Positions 11,881-55,604 of a stretch of 64,000 bases of DNA are shown here, one piece after another. The first letter of the stretch is position 1. The number at the start of each line of letters is the position of its first letter. The stretch comes from a phage. Both the position numbers and the translations under genes were made by a program. The stretch is from the sequence record OZ346219.1, one strand, 5' to 3'. A model generated the notes under the pieces. It was not told the origin of the DNA, did no database searches, and saw nothing but the letters and a program-made list of their open reading frames with translations.

Positions 11881-12082
11881 ACTTTCCCTCCAAAAATTCT
11901 TTCATCAAATAGTCTATCGTTGCTCTGTGTTCTGGTGTGTTTGTTATCTCTGCTAACTTGTTCAGAGATTCAATAGTGATCCGGTTGGCTTCTTCCATAG
12001 TCTCAACGACCATCGGTACAATCTTTTTATTGTTGTACACGAAAGCCACATAACCGCCTTCTGGATATTCTTTCATAATCAA
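11873..12082 (-). CDS. hypothetical protein (69 aa)
   Basis: Track ORF, start overlaps the gp52 stop. Confidence 0.4.
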   Translation of the reverse strand: MIMKEYPEGGYVAFVYNNKKIVPMVVETMEEANRITIESLNKLAEITNTPEHRATIDYLMKEFLEGKYD

Positions 12083-13440
12083 CCCTTCTTAAGTTCTTTA
12101 AGATCTTTCTTATATTCCTTCATTGCGGTCGTCTTTGTCCAATACTCATATTCACTATGATGTTTATCGGCATCTTTGACCAGTCGATCATACTCTTCTT
12201 GAGTAACGCTATACAATGGCATAGAAACGAGCTTATCGGCATATGGGCGAAGTTTTTCATGTTCATTGATGGATTGCATTACCTCGGCCTTTTTCTTGCC
12301 CTGTAGCTCGATTTCGCCCTTAATTACGCGGTCTATAAATTCAGCTTTAGCCATTGCATAATTGTATGCTTCCAGTGTTTCCGCTTGCATCAATTCAATG
12401 CGTTTATCTACATAGCCTAATCGGATTTCGACGAATCGACGGATCAGATCGCTCGCTTTCTCGAATACTTCTACTAAACCACGTTCGTTAACTACTACGA
12501 TATTCTGGGCTACTAACTGCGTTAGTTTAAAATCCTTCATGATTTGCTCATGTCGAGCGGATTCATCTTCGCTTTTGAAATAATCGCGTTTCAGTGTTAC
12601 TTCAAATCTGAATCCGTCCTTAGAGCAACGGTCATTATACGATACAATCAGATCTTTTTCTTCCAGTGCATCCAGTACCGCTACATATTCTTCACGGTCG
12701 AACTTATAAGGAACTTCTGATATTGTCAGCTTAGTCTTGCCGTTTAGTTCATATGTACCCTCAAGAATCACACCATCGCGGTCATCACGAGGGATAACTT
12801 TACCCGTGAATTTCGGGAATTGAACACTAGGTTCTTTATCCAGTTTTCCGGCAAGTGCTAGCTCTGTGCATTCAATAAGGCTTTCCAGTGAATGCGGTAA
12901 AATGTCAGTTTTATACCCTGTAGCAATACCACTAATACCATTAGCCAATACCATTGGCACAACTGGCAAGTAGAACGCTGGCGGGATGTGTTCCAGATCT
13001 TCGTGCTTAGGTGCGCAATTCATATCTTTATAGATTTTAAAGAAGTTTTCATGCACACGAGCAAAGATATAACGTGCTGCACCTGCTTTCTGGACTAAAC
13101 GAGATCCGAAGTTACCTTGACCGTCAAGCAGTGGAGTATTATTGCTCCATGTATTCGCCATGAGTGATCCGGCTTCTACGGCATTAGTTTCCCCGTGGTG
13201 ATACCCCAACTCAGCAACACCAGATCCAATATCTGCCATCTTACGGAATTTCTTACGGTCGCCTTTACTCTTTTGAAGTGCGCACTCCATAACAAAGCGT
13301 TGTACTGGTTTAAGCCCATCTACCAATTGAGGAATCCCGCGTTCCTCGGCAGAATAGATCGCATATTCCTTAGCTTCATTATGTACAATGCTTTCAAGGC
13401 TGCGGTAAGTAACTGATTTATTCATCTTCACCTCATACAC
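12079..13440 (-). CDS. gp52: DNA topoisomerase II medium subunit gp52 (GyrA-like)
   Basis: 453 aa; ...PQLVDGLKPVQRFV...GYHHGE...LLDGQGNFGS... are GyrA/ParC N-terminal motifs and match recalled T4 gp52. Confidence 0.85.
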   Translation of the reverse strand: MYEVKMNKSVTYRSLESIVHNEAKEYAIYSAEERGIPQLVDGLKPVQRFVMECALQKSKGDRKKFRKMADIGSGVAELGYHHGETNAVEAGSLMANTWSNNTPLLDGQGNFGSRLVQKAGAARYIFARVHENFFKIYKDMNCAPKHEDLEHIPPAFYLPVVPMVLANGISGIATGYKTDILPHSLESLIECTELALAGKLDKEPSVQFPKFTGKVIPRDDRDGVILEGTYELNGKTKLTISEVPYKFDREEYVAVLDALEEKDLIVSYNDRCSKDGFRFEVTLKRDYFKSEDESARHEQIMKDFKLTQLVAQNIVVVNERGLVEVFEKASDLIRRFVEIRLGYVDKRIELMQAETLEAYNYAMAKAEFIDRVIKGEIELQGKKKAEVMQSINEHEKLRPYADKLVSMPLYSVTQEEYDRLVKDADKHHSEYEYWTKTTAMKEYKKDLKELKKG

Positions 13441-13795
13441 GCTTACAAATCACATTCTTTACTTTATCAGATTTATCCGCCCAATCCAATAGCCATTTTA
13501 ACGGAAGGATTGAAACAATAAACGGGGCAGCAATCAAAGCAAACATGATACACCTGATAATCAGGAAAACGCAAGTGACAAAACTAGCGATAGTGATCCC
13601 GACAAAACAAAATACCATAGAAAACAGAGTAATGATATAGAAAGGCCAGAATACCCACTCCCGCATCTTAACGCCTTTGTATTCTCTGAATTGCTTAAAA
13701 TCTACAAACAACTCTCGGATAGACGCGTACAGGACCGAAAAATCATCTTTCATTGCTCTGAATGAGCAATCTTCTATTTTAGAATGACCTAGCAT
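13433..13795 (-). CDS. small integral membrane protein (120 aa, 2-3 predicted TM helices)
   Basis: Long hydrophobic stretches (FYIITLFSMVFCFVGITIASFVTCVFLIIRCIMFALIAAPFIVSIL). Confidence 0.45.
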   Translation of the reverse strand: MLGHSKIEDCSFRAMKDDFSVLYASIRELFVDFKQFREYKGVKMREWVFWPFYIITLFSMVFCFVGITIASFVTCVFLIIRCIMFALIAAPFIVSILPLKWLLDWADKSDKVKNVICKRV

Positions 13796-13797
13796 TA

Positions 13798-14091
13798 TTA
13801 ACCGCCTTTCATCATTGATACTGGAATTGTTTTCTGATTTGTGTATAACTGGCCTACTTCAATTTTTTCTTGAATCACCACGACGTTACAATATCCACTG
13901 TCTTTAAGTTTTCTGATAATGTCTCGCTTTTGTTCGTCGGTGATAGGATTGACGGTTCTCACCAATTCACCGCAAATAATAGCACCATCTTTACAATTAC
14001 CAGTAACTTTCATGCTACGACCGTGAACAACAACCACATCACCGTAAATCACATTTTCGTCGTCGTATTTGGTAATAATCGTGACCGTCAT
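13798..14091 (-). CDS. hypothetical protein (97 aa)
   Basis: Track ORF. Confidence 0.4.
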   Translation of the reverse strand: MTVTIITKYDDENVIYGDVVVVHGRSMKVTGNCKDGAIICGELVRTVNPITDEQKRDIIRKLKDSGYCNVVVIQEKIEVGQLYTNQKTIPVSMMKGG

Positions 14092-14100
14092 AATGTTATT

Positions 14101-14130
14101 CCCTCTAAGAAAGGCCGCGCAAAGCGGCCT
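14101..14130 (-). terminator. stem-loop (AGGCCGC-gcaaa-GCGGCCT) with flanking T-rich tracts
   Basis: 7-bp perfect inverted repeat between two minus-strand genes; T-rich on both sides. Confidence 0.4.
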
Positions 14131-14137
14131 ATGTTTA

Positions 14138-14470
14138 TTATTGTTCTACAGTATAGCCGTTGTTTTCAAGCCATGCAATAACAATCTTTTCGCCAATTTC
14201 ATCGAGCATTTCATCAGCGCCATATTCTTTAATGAAAGTCGATGGATCATTATTGCTTACTACGTGCTGGATCACAACATGTTCAGGAATTGCGTCTAGC
14301 AGTTCGCTATGATCATACTCATTAACGATATCTTCAACACTAACATTATTAACCAAATCAACATCATCCATAGTCACAGTAACGCGACCGGACGGACGCA
14401 ATGAATATTGGCTACTTTCAACTTCAACATGTGCACTTTCGCAAGTAACTTTCATATCAACCATAATCAA
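14138..14470 (-). CDS. highly acidic hypothetical protein (110 aa)
   Basis: By my count ~23 Asp/Glu versus ~5 Lys/Arg. Confidence 0.45.
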   Translation of the reverse strand: MIMVDMKVTCESAHVEVESSQYSLRPSGRVTVTMDDVDLVNNVSVEDIVNEYDHSELLDAIPEHVVIQHVVSNNDPSTFIKEYGADEMLDEIGEKIVIAWLENNGYTVEQ

Positions 14471-14478
14471 TTCCTCTG

Positions 14479-15480
14479 TTAGTAATGGCTAAAACCTTCG
14501 GTCACATCTTCAACCACATAGTAACGATGACAGCGCATTTTGGCATTCGCATAATCTTTCGGGATACTTACAACGTGACGCGGATCAACTTTGCATTTAA
14601 TGATTCGGCCTCGCCCACCGCCATAGTGCGGAATGTAGTGTTTCGCTGCAACGTGGAGGCCATTAGAGCAAGTGCGGTCATCATCTGGGTCCACGTCTTT
14701 ACGCTTCATTTTAACCGTGCGCCCTGGGCTATTATCAAACGTATGCGTAAAGAAATCTTTATAATCAACATCAACACGTTTCCATGCATAGAAACAACCG
14801 TCTTCCACGATCTCAATGTCGTTGTGCTCTAAGAAGTCAAACAGACGATCTACCGCCTTACGGCTAGGGTTTTTCTTGCACTTCTCAAAGAAGTTCAGAT
14901 AGTGCGTATATGGCTTATTCTCTTTAATCGACTCCACAACTCGACGAGTCAGATTATTATCAAGAACAATATTATGATAATACACAATACCATTTTCGAT
15001 ACGGAAAGCGCCGTGATAATATACTTCAACCGCTTTCTTAATGTCAATCAGCGTAATTGCTTTAATAAAATCATTCTTCTTAACTGCTTCCAGTGCTTCC
15101 TTAAAGTTAACATGTGATGGATCAGCAGTATAAACAATGTCACCACATGTAATAGTAATAAACTTAGTTGAGGCTATGGCTACGATTTTTGAGGAAGTAG
15201 TCACGGGCTTTTTTGCGCGTTCACCGCCTTTTCCTTTACTGGTTTTACGGCGTGCTTTACGTTTTTCTAGTGCCTTGCGACCTTCCGCTACTGCGTCTTT
15301 CTGAATCAGTAATACACGGGAGGCAGTGCGACGAGATACACCAAATGCTGCCGCAAGTGCTTCGCGGGTAGTAAACTTACCTTCTCCCCACTGTTTAGCC
15401 AGTTTGATTTGTTTCGCAGAATCCAGACATTGAACGTTACGGTCAGAGACGGTGATTTTTGCTTTAGTCATAGTATTCAT
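14479..15480 (-). CDS. rIIB: rIIB protein (probable true start at ATG 15471, MTKAKITV...)
   Basis: C-terminal half (PSRKAVDRLFDFLEHNDIEIVEDGCFYAWK...FDNSPGRTVKM...DDRTCSNGLHV...VVEDVTEGF) matches recalled T4 rIIB; lies next to rIIA. Confidence 0.85.
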   Translation of the reverse strand: MNTMTKAKITVSDRNVQCLDSAKQIKLAKQWGEGKFTTREALAAAFGVSRRTASRVLLIQKDAVAEGRKALEKRKARRKTSKGKGGERAKKPVTTSSKIVAIASTKFITITCGDIVYTADPSHVNFKEALEAVKKNDFIKAITLIDIKKAVEVYYHGAFRIENGIVYYHNIVLDNNLTRRVVESIKENKPYTHYLNFFEKCKKNPSRKAVDRLFDFLEHNDIEIVEDGCFYAWKRVDVDYKDFFTHTFDNSPGRTVKMKRKDVDPDDDRTCSNGLHVAAKHYIPHYGGGRGRIIKCKVDPRHVVSIPKDYANAKMRCHRYYVVEDVTEGFSHY

Positions 15481-15532
15481 TCCTCTAATAGTGGGCGACT
15501 CTCGCCGCCCGATTCACATCATTATACCAGAA

Positions 15533-15664
15533 TTATTTTGCTTCTACAACCTTGCGGATTGTGCGGTCTGATACATTATAGATTCGTGCCAGTTCGCCTT
15601 TAGTCAAGCCGCGAGCGTATTGTTTACGGATGGTTTCTTTCTGGATAGCGGTCAGTTTAGTCAT
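15533..15664 (-). CDS. small HTH-like ORF (43 aa) between rIIA and rIIB; not in the ORF track (<60 aa)
   Basis: Hand-translated on the minus strand: MTKLTAIQKETIRKQYARGLTKGELARIYNVSDRTIRKVVEAK; resembles the rIIB N-terminus (MTKAKI...TTREALAAAFGVSRRTASRVL). Confidence 0.4.
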   Translation of the reverse strand: MTKLTAIQKETIRKQYARGLTKGELARIYNVSDRTIRKVVEAK

Positions 15665-15675
15665 AATATCACCTC

Positions 15676-17784
15676 TTAAAATTTAACATTCTTAACCAGT
15701 TTCATAAAGTCTTGTGCGCGTTTGTCATTATGCAGAATACGATACCAGTTATCGACAATATCATACAGTAACGGGCTATTCTCTTTAAACTTCGCACAAA
15801 CTGCTTTAATTCGTTCGTTTGCTGCCGTGAATTTTTCATCACAGATCTTTTTAGTTTCTTCGTCCATAATCCAACGAGTACGAAGGAGTAACTTGGAAAC
15901 CTCTTTATTATAATGACGACCGTACAGTCTGTCAATAAATTCTGGAACACAGCGTTCTAGTTCATCGTCATGAAACAACATAGTGATCACACCCAGATAT
16001 TCGCCATACCCCAGATGATTGGTCTTAACCTTCTTAGCCAGACCAGCCAGCTTACCGCGAACAAATTCTAGCGCACATTCCAATTGTTCGTCAACGAGAT
16101 ATTTTTGTGTCTCATTACGGGTAATAATATACTTTGTTACCCCGAAGTAGTCAAGCGCCGTGTGTAATGTATTTTCATTATAGATCGATTGACGGCTACG
16201 GCTTTCGAATGCATCACCCACGCGGAACATGTGCAAGCCTGATAACTCGCGAATCTCTGCCGCTTTCATGTGATGGCTGGTTTTATGCCAACTGTCACCA
16301 ATCTTTTCCATGATATACACGTTAGGCAGCTTGGGAGTAGCTTCACGTTGTGTACGCTCGGTCTTTTCCGGTTTAACTGCTTTGGCACGCAGATCATCTG
16401 CCTCGGATACCTTAATCACGGTCATTTCAGATTCATCATAATACTGTTTGATGTACTCGAAAGTCTCCATATGTTTTTCGTTGCGCTGACGGAACACCAA
16501 TACCTTTTTATTGATTCCGTATTCCTGGACCATGCCGTTAAGAGTCAGTGCACGCAGTTTCGGTTTATCGGTATCATCAATAAGACACGTAATATCTTCT
16601 TTATGCATCCATACAAAATGCGTAATGTTGTATTGACTGCTAACGAAAGCAGGGCGCAATTTACTGATTGTGTGACGAGTACGATACAGAGTATACACCT
16701 GACCTTCTACGTCATTTGGCGAATCTTTACCCGCATTCACAAACTTATTATAGATTGCTACCGGATCATCCCACTGCCCGATCTTACCCATCTTGCTAAT
16801 AATATTGCGTTGAGTCGATGAATACTCGCTCATAAATTGCGCAAGTTTACGCTCTGTTTTAATGTTGGCGATCTTCTCTTTAACCTTTTCCAACATCATT
16901 TCATTGATTTCTGCAATGCGTTTTTCGATGTTCGCTTTAGTCTCAATTGACAAGTGAACTTCTTCACGCGATGGCATCAGGTCCAGATCACCCAACTCAA
17001 AATTAATGTAAATTGTCTGGTGCTGGCGGTTTACAGCTTCTAACCATGTTCCGCGAACATATTCATACGGGATCGGATACTGGATCTTACCCATGATTGC
17101 ATATACTACATAGGAATCGTTATCGCGCCCATTACACACATAATAATTATCAAAGCTAGGAAAATAATTAATTTCGATTGCGTTGATATTCGGTTTGTGT
17201 TCCCCAAAATGACGCAGTACAAATTGTGCTTCTCGATGCCATGTCTGAATGTCTTTTTCTTTCACCGGAATAGTGATTTTCAGACCATTGTCTTCATAGG
17301 TCGGTTCGTCGAAAATCTGCACCATTTTCGGCATAGAGTTTTGCACAAATGCAGTAAAGCCATAAGCGCGACCATTGTAGTAGTTTACGATTGTAAAGGT
17401 GTCAGTATAGCTATAAGCAGACTTCGCACCTAAACCAAAAGATCCGATATAATCATTAGTCTGGTCTTTTGTTGATTCAAAGTAAACCGTAAACAGTTGT
17501 TCTAATTCTTTCTTAGACGGAATACCCGTACCATAATCACGCACAGAAAAATACGGTTCGATTGCAGTCGGTAAATGAATATCAAACGGACGATCTAAGG
17601 TTCCGGCTTCTTTGTGAGTGTCGGTAGCATTGCACGAATACTCACGGACGCAAGCACGCTCACAATATTGATAAGTGTTCTTAGAAAGCACCATAAAAGC
17701 CTTGCTACTTGCTTTCAGTGAAAAATCAACCGCACCGCTCAAGTCACTGCCAAATACTTCTTCATTATCAATATGCATTTTCAT
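15676..17784 (-). CDS. rIIA: rIIA protein (702 aa)
   Basis: YFESTKDQTNDYIGSFGLGAKSAYSYTDTFTIVNYYNG matches recalled T4 rIIA (GHKL ATPase-like region); ATG with RBS GTGAGGA. Confidence 0.85.
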   Translation of the reverse strand: MKMHIDNEEVFGSDLSGAVDFSLKASSKAFMVLSKNTYQYCERACVREYSCNATDTHKEAGTLDRPFDIHLPTAIEPYFSVRDYGTGIPSKKELEQLFTVYFESTKDQTNDYIGSFGLGAKSAYSYTDTFTIVNYYNGRAYGFTAFVQNSMPKMVQIFDEPTYEDNGLKITIPVKEKDIQTWHREAQFVLRHFGEHKPNINAIEINYFPSFDNYYVCNGRDNDSYVVYAIMGKIQYPIPYEYVRGTWLEAVNRQHQTIYINFELGDLDLMPSREEVHLSIETKANIEKRIAEINEMMLEKVKEKIANIKTERKLAQFMSEYSSTQRNIISKMGKIGQWDDPVAIYNKFVNAGKDSPNDVEGQVYTLYRTRHTISKLRPAFVSSQYNITHFVWMHKEDITCLIDDTDKPKLRALTLNGMVQEYGINKKVLVFRQRNEKHMETFEYIKQYYDESEMTVIKVSEADDLRAKAVKPEKTERTQREATPKLPNVYIMEKIGDSWHKTSHHMKAAEIRELSGLHMFRVGDAFESRSRQSIYNENTLHTALDYFGVTKYIITRNETQKYLVDEQLECALEFVRGKLAGLAKKVKTNHLGYGEYLGVITMLFHDDELERCVPEFIDRLYGRHYNKEVSKLLLRTRWIMDEETKKICDEKFTAANERIKAVCAKFKENSPLLYDIVDNWYRILHNDKRAQDFMKLVKNVKF

Positions 17785-54361: not shown

Positions 54362-55170
54362 TCTACGTTAGTTACATAAACTTCTTGTGTATCAGAAGAC
54401 TTGCCACCTGAACGATCTAGGCAATAGGTCTTATTCAACAGGACGCAGTTTAAATCATTCCGCTTGATAAAGTCAAGAAGATGATCATTTACCTTTCCCT
54501 TATGATGTGTGACATTACTTATACCAAACTGAAAACCACGCGCCATAATAGATTCTACCCACTGATAGAATTTAATCTCTTCCTCGTCACTCCAGAACTT
54601 ATTATATTCCGCAGAAGTGATAAGGTACGGCGGGTCCAAATAAACGAAATCACCTGGCAAGATCTCGATCTCGTCATAACGACCAGACGTAAAACTGATT
54701 CGACCGTCTTTGTTTTCTTCCTTAAAATTCAGGACACGCTCTACCGCGTTTTCGTTAAAAGTCCGGCGACCAAAATTAGCATTAAATTCGCCCTTCCTGT
54801 TATGACGGTTAATGTTGCTAAAACTGTGCTGAATCAGAACAAACAGAGATAGCGGATCTGGATTCTCATTATACTTCTTACGGAATGCCATGTAAGCATC
54901 TTTATCATCACGAGACAAACCATTTTCGGCAATAATCCTCTTGATCATAAAAACCGGATCAGGACACTCATCAATGACCTTGTAAGCGTCAATTAAGCGG
55001 TGATCATAGTCATTAGCCAGCACATCCCCTTCGACGTACAGAGACACGCTCAAGCCACCACAAAAGGCATCGACAAAGCGGTTATAGTGCTTAGGGAAAT
55101 ACTTACTAACACCAGGCAATAACTTTTCCTTATTGCCCGTATAGGGAATTAAACCTAATGCTTTCTTCAT
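54358..55170 (-). CDS. dam: DNA adenine methyltransferase (Dam-like, N6-A MTase)
   Basis: SAM-binding FVDAFCGGLS and catalytic YLDPPY motifs with Dam-like spacing. Confidence 0.8.
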   Translation of the reverse strand: MKKALGLIPYTGNKEKLLPGVSKYFPKHYNRFVDAFCGGLSVSLYVEGDVLANDYDHRLIDAYKVIDECPDPVFMIKRIIAENGLSRDDKDAYMAFRKKYNENPDPLSLFVLIQHSFSNINRHNRKGEFNANFGRRTFNENAVERVLNFKEENKDGRISFTSGRYDEIEILPGDFVYLDPPYLITSAEYNKFWSDEEEIKFYQWVESIMARGFQFGISNVTHHKGKVNDHLLDFIKRNDLNCVLLNKTYCLDRSGGKSSDTQEVYVTNVD

Positions 55171-55604
55171 TATCCCTTCCTCAAATAAGTTCTTTCAATT
55201 TCTACCAGTTCGAAAAATTCTTCCCAATCACACGGAAAATTGCAGTTTCCAAAATGGTCTTCATTGTAAAGTTCTTTACCGGATGGCAACTTAATATCTG
55301 TTACAGTATACCAACCGCAACAATCGCAATCACCCTCAGCAACAGAAACTTTCGTAGGAATTTGCATCATTGCAAGATACAAAGGCACGTCGGACTGTTC
55401 AAAGATCATGTAACCTTCATGGTCAAACGAAACAAAATTATCATCACCCAAAAAAGGGATATAGTGGTCATAGTCAGTAACAGGTTGACCGTGTAATTCC
55501 CATTCTACAATATTAATCTTACCGCTAAAAGTGATACCCATCATATCAACCATAAAATGGGTATCATCGATGTAAATCTTACTAGGAGTTGGATAAACCA
55601 TCAT
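55170..55604 (-). CDS. hypothetical protein (144 aa)
   Basis: Track ORF, hyperplastic region between dam and tk. Confidence 0.4.
   Translation of the reverse strand: MMVYPTPSKIYIDDTHFMVDMMGITFSGKINIVEWELHGQPVTDYDHYIPFLGDDNFVSFDHEGYMIFEQSDVPLYLAMMQIPTKVSVAEGDCDCCGWYTVTDIKLPSGKELYNEDHFGNCNFPCDWEEFFELVEIERTYLRKG

Follow-up and report, generated by a model that had tools for sequence, protein, structure and literature searches.

What does a small, strongly acidic protein encoded directly behind rIIB do for an RB49-like coliphage? The window analysed here, a stretch of 64,000 nucleotides from sequence record OZ346219.1, belongs to a Krischvirus of the RB49/Phi1/GEC-3S type, and the 2.2 kb around the acidic ORF are 98% identical to GoldenSnicker, GEC-3S, Phi1, JSE and RB49 (59 records). 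The original prediction was that the ORF encodes a DNA mimic of the Ocr, Arn or ArdA kind that inhibits restriction enzymes or other DNA-binding defence proteins. The gene was already on record: 59 genomes have it annotated as hypothetical, and it constitutes phrog_14049. What this analysis adds is the delimitation of a wider family, a duplication within the Krischvirus form, the fixed slot that its relatives occupy behind N in lambdoid prophages, and a set of negative tests of family membership.

The ORF itself is real, but its length had been given as 110 amino acids (14138-14470), counted from a TTG at 14470. We place the start at the ATG at 14464, giving a protein of 108 rather than 110 residues, because this codon is preceded by a Shine-Dalgarno sequence, is the start used in the databases (GEC-3S, Phi1, Makalu_003, SSG23 and Skers records) and coincides in the alignment with Met1, which is invariant among all relatives; among all database annotations seen, none uses the TTG. 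The protein contains 10 Asp and 13 Glu (23 acidic residues) against 3 Lys and 2 Arg (5 basic residues), exactly as first counted, for a net charge of −18 and a pI of 4.09. Its net charge per residue, −0.167, is the lowest among the 107 non-overlapping ORFs of the window. The features of the locus are collected in Table 1.

Table 1. Position and character of the genes, signals and protein-coding segments at the acidic ORF locus
Feature	Position	Strand	Remarks
rIIA	15676-17784	minus	
43-aa helix-turn-helix (HTH) ORF	15533-15664	minus	between rIIA and rIIB
Promoter before rIIB, early-type sigma-70	15521-15549	minus	TTGTAG, 17-nt spacer, TGgTATAAT (extended −10); from sequence
rIIB	14479-15480	minus	upstream of acidic ORF; phrog_609 RIIB, E 1.6e-106, and record annotations
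Shine-Dalgarno AGAGGA	14472-14477	minus	7 nt before ATG 14464, within the 14-nt spacer between rIIB and the ORF; read from sequence
Acidic-protein CDS	14138-14464	minus	108 aa plus stop; ATG 14464-14462, TAA 14140-14138
Beta-hairpin-coding region	14366-14449	minus	residues about 6-33; variable part; AlphaFold strands 10-17 and 26-33
First three-helix module	14249-14338	minus	residues 43-72, EDIVNEYDHSELLDAIPEHVVIQHVVSN; predicted helices 43-49, 52-58, 61-70; missing from short forms
Second three-helix module and conserved C-terminus	14141-14245	minus	residues 74-108, FIKEYGADEMLDEIGEKIVIAWLENNGYTVEQ; family signature
GC-rich hairpin and U-rich tail	14104-14130	minus	stem-loop 14112-14130; probable intrinsic terminator
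Topoisomerase II medium subunit gp52	12079-13440	minus	

On the minus strand the order of elements is rIIA, the 43-aa HTH ORF, rIIB, the acidic ORF, the hairpin, two ORFs of 97 and 120 aa, and gp52. The predicted adjacency to rIIB is borne out by a phrog_609 match of the upstream gene, whose stop codon lies just 14 nt before the ATG of the acidic ORF, and a promoter scan found no promoter between the two. The promoter before rIIB scored under the threshold of the consensus promoter scan; the GEC-3S record annotates −35 and −10 signals at the same place. Downstream, the stem-loop (AGGCCGC-UUUGC-GCGGCCU; centroid −13.6 kcal/mol, z −2.35) bears out the claim that a hairpin of its own follows the gene, and it is annotated as a terminator in the GEC-3S and Makalu_003 records. 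Its U-tract on the strand of the acidic gene, UUCUUAG, is moderate and fails the T-run rule of the scan. From the promoter type, the 14-nt spacer and the hairpin, we read promoter, rIIB, acidic ORF and terminator as one early unit, in which rIIB and the acidic ORF are probably co-transcribed; the promoter type points to early timing of the acidic gene.

The 43-aa ORF separating rIIA from rIIB encodes nothing but a helix-turn-helix, which matches phrog_15481 and Pfam CENP-B_N (E 7e-6), with weaker matches to sigma-70 region 4, HTH_28 and Mor. A further weak match, to the HTH at the N-terminal end of the RIIB PHROG, makes it look like a detached copy of that end of RIIB. In the 5' leader of rIIB, downstream of the promoter, lies a 7-bp hairpin capped by a GAGA tetraloop (GGGCGGC-GAGA-GUCGCCC; 15493-15510, minus strand), which may be an mRNA-stabilising or regulatory structure. 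In the interval from the terminator hairpin to gp52, which in T4 is occupied by denB, ndd, stp and ac, the two small ORFs (13433-14091, minus strand) match PHROGs to which no function is assigned: the 97-aa product matches phrog_14759, and its Shine-Dalgarno sequence directly abuts the terminator tail, and the 120-aa product is hydrophobic, matches phrog_16033 and is probably a membrane protein. Elsewhere in the window a second strongly acidic ORF (55170-55604, minus strand) encodes 144 aa with a net charge of −18 and a pI of 4.24. It matches phrog_8157, again a PHROG with no assigned function, has a CDCCGW motif and several other Cys residues, and is another candidate small inhibitor.

A short ORF that all records call just hypothetical might be fortuitous, or a decaying and functionless remnant. 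We compared the gene with its three most divergent Krischvirus orthologues and obtained dN/dS values of 0.14-0.18, with 23 synonymous and 16 non-synonymous differences from Makalu_003. Constraint is concentrated in residues 43-108, where dN/dS is about 0.05 (12 synonymous and 3 non-synonymous differences from Makalu_003). Over the first 42 residues divergence is faster, with a dN of 0.15-0.19 in the beta-hairpin part against 0.02 in the C-terminal part, and orthologues differ by a 3-codon indel in the hairpin loop. The gene is kept in 59/59 Krischvirus records, that is, in every record covering the region, and the protein matches phrog_14049 over its full length (residues 1-108 against profile positions 1-108, E 5.2e-66). 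The acidic ORF is thus a genuine gene under purifying selection. This selection and the distant homologues described below, together with the good Shine-Dalgarno sequence and ATG, effectively refute the functionless reading, which we regard as scarcely tenable. Three overlapping ORFs on the plus strand (14069-14299, 14160-14312 and 14309-14404) were rejected as shadows, since it is the acidic gene that is under codon-level purifying selection.

Queried with this one protein, word-indexed and tblastn searches returned Krischvirus copies alone, at identities of at least 80%. Distant relatives emerged when 1.84 billion representatives were scanned exhaustively with HMMER, and two profile searches raised the family, which is confined to phages, to about 95 clusters of 70-108 aa, all of them acidic, with homologues at 25-45% identity spread over several phage lineages. 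All family names found were "hypothetical". The protein of the window had no match in Pfam or NCBIfam, and Pfam searches with 54 family members gave scattered matches at E 0.017 or worse. phrog_14049 is the family itself, with no characterised member and weaker links to phrog_7311 and phrog_11519; the short-form relatives match the same PHROGs as the Krischvirus protein, none of which has an assigned function. Family peptide motifs and accessions gave no match in a full-text literature search, and the motifs were absent from the supplements of accessory-gene screens (10.1101/2023.04.06.535777, PMC12373910) and of the EVADES anti-defence catalogue (10.1101/2025.06.06.658234).

The majority of relatives are short forms of 69-79 aa, consisting of a beta-hairpin and one three-helix module. 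Three long forms were seen: the Krischvirus protein (105-108 aa) and the proteins P0009 and P0012 (103 aa each). In the alignment, a 31-residue insertion is what sets the long form apart from the short one, and this insertion is an internal duplication: VNEYDHSELLDAIPEHVVIQHVVSN aligned with IKEYGADEMLDEIGEKIVIAWLENN at a score of 48, against 20.6 ± 3.8 for shuffled sequences, 0/1000 of which reached 48. The Krischvirus form thus has two copies of the three-helix module. For P0009, the closest long-form relative, a viral scan gave no genomic match; two metagenome matches were rejected as false positives inside an endonuclease IV gene that shares the string "PEDECLDAI".

Acidity is a property of the whole family and not of the Krischvirus copy alone: 54/54 aligned members are acidic, with net charges of −6 to −20 and a median pI of 4.05. 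Asp or Glu makes up at least 70% of ten alignment columns, which form i, i+3/4, i+7 stripes along the helices and alternate positions of strand 2. Near-invariant positions across the family are hydrophobic or aromatic (I46, L87, I90, W98, Y104 and V106), and the three-helix module carries the signature EYGxxxLLDEIGExxVIxWLExxGYTV. In the beta-hairpin region, hydrophobic and polar columns alternate.

An AlphaFold model built on the 54-sequence alignment (pLDDT 67, pTM 0.31) predicts the hairpin and, after it, six short helices in two groups of three. In the second module these span residues 74-81, 83-90 and 92-101, with near-invariant columns at Y81, L87, I90, W98, G103 and V106. With a shallow, Krischvirus-only alignment pLDDT was 43.8; the deeper alignment improved the secondary structure alone, and at a pLDDT of 67 and a pTM of 0.31 the tertiary arrangement is not reliable. 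A fold comparison of this weak model gave no match to any solved DNA mimic, and the family probably has a fold of its own. Sequence profile searches of the PDB returned matches to ASF1, Lsm5 and bacterioferritin (E 0.04 or worse), which we rejected as due to chance.

To place the relatives in their genomes, we inspected ten lambdoid prophage loci, from Yersinia massiliensis (L002), Lelliottia (L005), E. coli (L008, L009), Proteus mirabilis (L014), one further sample (L016), Pantoea (L027), Providencia (L028), Citrobacter (L029) and Y. enterocolitica (L030). In 10/10 the short form stands at the head of the early-left (pL) operon, behind the repressor and N but ahead of cIII, kil, gam or recombination genes; in five of the ten it lies directly after a recognised N, with gaps of about 10-180 nt. 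Phage lambda has orf28, ral, ea10, cIII, kil and gam in the corresponding stretch of pL, and no Pfam Ral match was recorded at the ten loci. Lambda Ral, cIII, Kil and Gam bind host proteins directly and modulate or inhibit them. When an E. coli prophage locus was searched against 5,426 complete E. coli genomes, no copy of the gene was detected at the sensitivity of megablast. In three of these genomes (H97-H99; L019), sequence 99.5-99.9% identical to the prophage (L008, 6001-6253) begins 25 nt past the stop codon of the acidic gene, at an Nmad5 gene. The acidic gene thus lies exactly at the boundary of a recombination module, as the three genomes share nothing upstream of that mosaic junction; in their prophage type the slot holds no gene.

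Outside the lambdoid phages, Vibrio prophages carry the family gene in an early cluster with RecT, a YqaJ-Gp5.9 fusion and Dam, and it was also found in a 135-kb phage contig, in Kagunavirus ST20 and in Xuquatrovirus Pondi. At all loci examined the gene is part of an early gene cluster. Its distribution over Straboviridae, lambdoid phages, Kagunavirus, Xuquatrovirus and Vibrio phages is patchy, and the gene is a mobile accessory gene of unrelated phage types. No family match was found in 72,556 plasmids by tblastn with one short-form member.

Two of these loci have features of their own. In the Vibrio prophages (L010, 3515-5254; L011, 3568-5256), a protein of 560-580 aa joins a YqaJ-type exonuclease to a domain like T7 Gp5.9, the RecBCD inhibitor; this unusual exonuclease/anti-RecBCD fusion adjoins RecT, and the acidic family gene lies three genes downstream of it. 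The 135-kb contig, from a large virulent phage that encodes DNA ligase and RdgC, has a long run of small early ORFs around P0012, and the genes immediately after that of P0012 encode the Pfam domains T4_Y16D and DUF2528 (L006, 6001-7043).

The 14-nt spacer behind rIIB, with no promoter in it, and the position directly after N in five prophages would suit a protein that works with the phage's own early programme, as a cofactor of RIIB in Krischvirus and in N antitermination in lambdoids. RIIB and N are unrelated proteins, however, and the gene has neither neighbour in the Vibrio prophages, Kagunavirus ST20, Xuquatrovirus Pondi or the 135-kb contig; T4, for its part, has rIIB and no homologue of the acidic gene in its rIIB-to-t region. 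We therefore regard a role as partner or modulator of phage proteins as very unlikely.

The idea that the protein is a DNA mimic blocking type I restriction-modification (R-M), McrBC or BREX through their DNA-binding grooves draws on a feature of DNA mimics, a functional class without a common fold, namely a high and conserved negative charge density. At −0.167 per residue the protein lies between T4 Arn (−0.098) and T7 Ocr (−0.239), its acidity holds in all 54 aligned members, it belongs to an early unit, and its short-form relatives sit in the N-to-cIII slot that ral holds in lambda. In addition, phmmer searches of the six-frame translation of the window found no homologue of Arn, Ocr, Ral, Gam, AsiA, MotA, DenB or Ndd. 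The best E-value for Arn was 0.84, which agrees with the original remark that no Arn homologue is apparent at the T4 arn position, and that for MotA was 0.024, in a short frame. The lack of AsiA, MotA, Arn, DenB and Ndd matches is consistent with an RB49-type phage without the T4 middle-mode and host-DNA-degradation sets.

Homology points the other way. Alignment of the 54-sequence family profile with hhalign gave probabilities of 1.3% for Ocr (over 8 columns), 0.2% for Arn, 0.1% for Ral, 0.3% for Gam and 0.4% for Ea10, which places the protein outside the Ocr, Arn, Ral and Gam families; Pfam likewise gave no Ocr, ArdA or Ral match. Judged from these comparisons, what the protein appears to share with the known inhibitors is just a general small, acidic, early character. 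T7 Ocr (gp0.3), which inhibits type I R-M and BREX by mimicking DNA, is similarly small, early and acidic (−28 over 117 aa, against −18 over 108 aa), and both proteins would act before or as DNA enters, but there is neither homology nor a fold match between Ocr and the predicted beta-hairpin with two three-helix modules. T4 Arn, a DNA mimic that inhibits McrBC, likewise comes from a T4-type phage and is small, acidic and early (92 aa, net −9), but it too lacks homology, and its gene lies between asiA and motA in T4, a block that is not annotated in Krischvirus. The target of Arn acts on modified cytosine; McrBC would thus be irrelevant to phages with unmodified cytosine.

For lambda Ral, the short-form relatives are positional analogues, being small pL genes between N and cIII, yet Ral is basic (net +3, pI 8.8) and not homologous, and the Krischvirus gene follows rIIB in a non-lambdoid context. 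The RecBCD inhibitors lambda Gam and T7 gp5.9, which mimic DNA ends, are early proteins of the same operon type as the family, but no Gam homology and no Pfam GamL or Gp5_9 match was found in it. The family gene and GamL are not simple alternatives, because prophages with the family gene often carry GamL too. Unlike the plasmid anti-restriction proteins ArdA and KlcA, which lie in leading regions of conjugative elements, the family has no members on the plasmids searched; the comparison with ArdA was made through Pfam, and no ArdA-type match was found.

Published work on Krischvirus bears directly on the restriction question. RB49-type phages have neither genes 42 and 56 and the glucosyltransferases nor arn, alc and denB, and so are without the hydroxymethylcytosine network and the associated DNA hypermodification genes; how their genomes escape restriction was called an open question by Petrov et al. 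(PMC2993671). The DNA of phage TB34 has canonical cytosines, whereas that of the 99.96% identical phage SAP has glucosylated methyl-dC, with no known synthase genes (PMC13390438). Each of the two carries the acidic gene at 98% identity. These near-identical phages differ completely in cytosine modification, and the modification status of the phage in the window matters for which defences it must evade.

TB34 is restricted despite its copy of the gene. Its efficiency of plating falls 10-100-fold on a Salmonella type I BREX system, and far more in a brxL deletion, and plating recovers fully when Ocr or Sp6 Gp5 is provided in trans, so that a phage with the acidic gene still needs Ocr in order to escape BREX (PMC11341690). 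An EPEC island with type I R-M and DarTG2 restricts it about 10^4-fold, with the contributions of the two components not separated (PMC12255303). A gene set that includes the acidic ORF therefore gives no Ocr-like protection against these systems, which is indirect evidence against the claim that the protein inhibits BREX or type I R-M in the manner of Ocr. An Ocr-like broad mimic is unlikely for the same reason, and given the sensitivity of TB34 and the lack of homology we consider an Ocr-, ArdA- or Arn-like mimic an unlikely explanation overall. What backs the original prediction in a general way is the conserved acidity, the early-type unit and the pL slot of the relatives; no support came from a sequence relation to Ocr, Arn, Ral, Gam or ArdA, a match to a solved mimic, or copies on plasmids. 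A narrower anti-nuclease, or another host-protein inhibitor, is possible on these results.

One such inhibitor would be a host-takeover factor acting on a housekeeping protein, such as RNA polymerase or sigma, a nucleoid protein, a protease or the division machinery. There are precedents for each target: T7 Gp2 and T4 AsiA act on RNA polymerase and sigma, T7 gp5.5 and T4 Ndd on the nucleoid (H-NS, HU), lambda cIII and T4 PinA on proteases, and Kil on division. The early context is the same as for an anti-defence protein, and the pL stretch that houses the family in lambdoid phages also holds cIII and Kil, whose targets FtsH and FtsZ are both housekeeping proteins. No asiA, motA or ndd was detectable in the window, so other early host modulators are to be expected. 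Moreover, the strongest conservation in the family falls on the hydrophobic and aromatic C-terminal motif, which fits a specific protein interface; W98, Y104, L87 and I90, among the most conserved residues, could just as well form a specific contact surface for a protein partner that has nothing to do with mimicry of nucleic acids. By itself, acidity predicts function poorly. Nevertheless, the protein has no similarity to any of these takeover proteins, and its patchy, mobile distribution better fits a dispensable accessory or counter-defence gene. We rate a housekeeping target as somewhat unlikely.

The explanation that we tentatively prefer is that the acidic protein, a polyanion made early and acting stoichiometrically, inhibits a host protein that normally binds nucleic acid; the most plausible target is a defence or repair enzyme of the nuclease type. 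According to this proposal, the gene would be transcribed with rIIB from the early-type promoter, with transcription ending at its own hairpin, and its product would come into play shortly after the DNA has entered the cell. The protein would bind its target with the conserved acidic surface acting as an electrostatic decoy, and so block the enzyme before the phage DNA is attacked. The DNA protected in this way would be largely unmodified in at least some Krischvirus members. We count in favour of the proposal a real gene, a conserved charge, a charge density in the Arn-to-Ocr range, the early unit, the pL slot of the relatives, their patchy distribution and the need of these phages for protection. 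Counted against it are the family names, all of them hypothetical, the lack of similarity to any known inhibitor, a model with a pTM of 0.31 that offers no usable surface, the poor predictive value of acidity together with the hydrophobic and aromatic nature of the most conserved residues, and the restriction of TB34 despite its copy of the gene. The gene, its conserved acidity and its transcriptional and positional setting are shown; early timing, inhibitor function and target class are parts of the proposal that we infer.

A more far-reaching version would make the family a new, structurally distinct class of early anti-nuclease decoys, shared by virulent RB49-type phages and by lambdoid prophages in their ral slot. 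Such a class could partly explain how T4 relatives with unmodified cytosine survive restriction by the host, and the duplication in Krischvirus would then give a longer or bivalent mimic. We regard this version as a long shot.

The family seems best described as one of the small acidic early phage inhibitor kind that forms a sequence family of its own. Because all members found are acidic, those at the loci examined lie in early clusters and, in temperate phages, take the slot of ral, it is a concrete and cheaply testable candidate for a counter-defence or host-takeover inhibitor, and the BREX sensitivity of TB34 already narrows the roles that the protein may have. If the candidate fails, the gene would be one of the many small acidic early ORFs of T4-like phages. 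If it holds, the family would add a new fold to the small polyanionic inhibitors and would link the anti-host repertoires of virulent and temperate phages.
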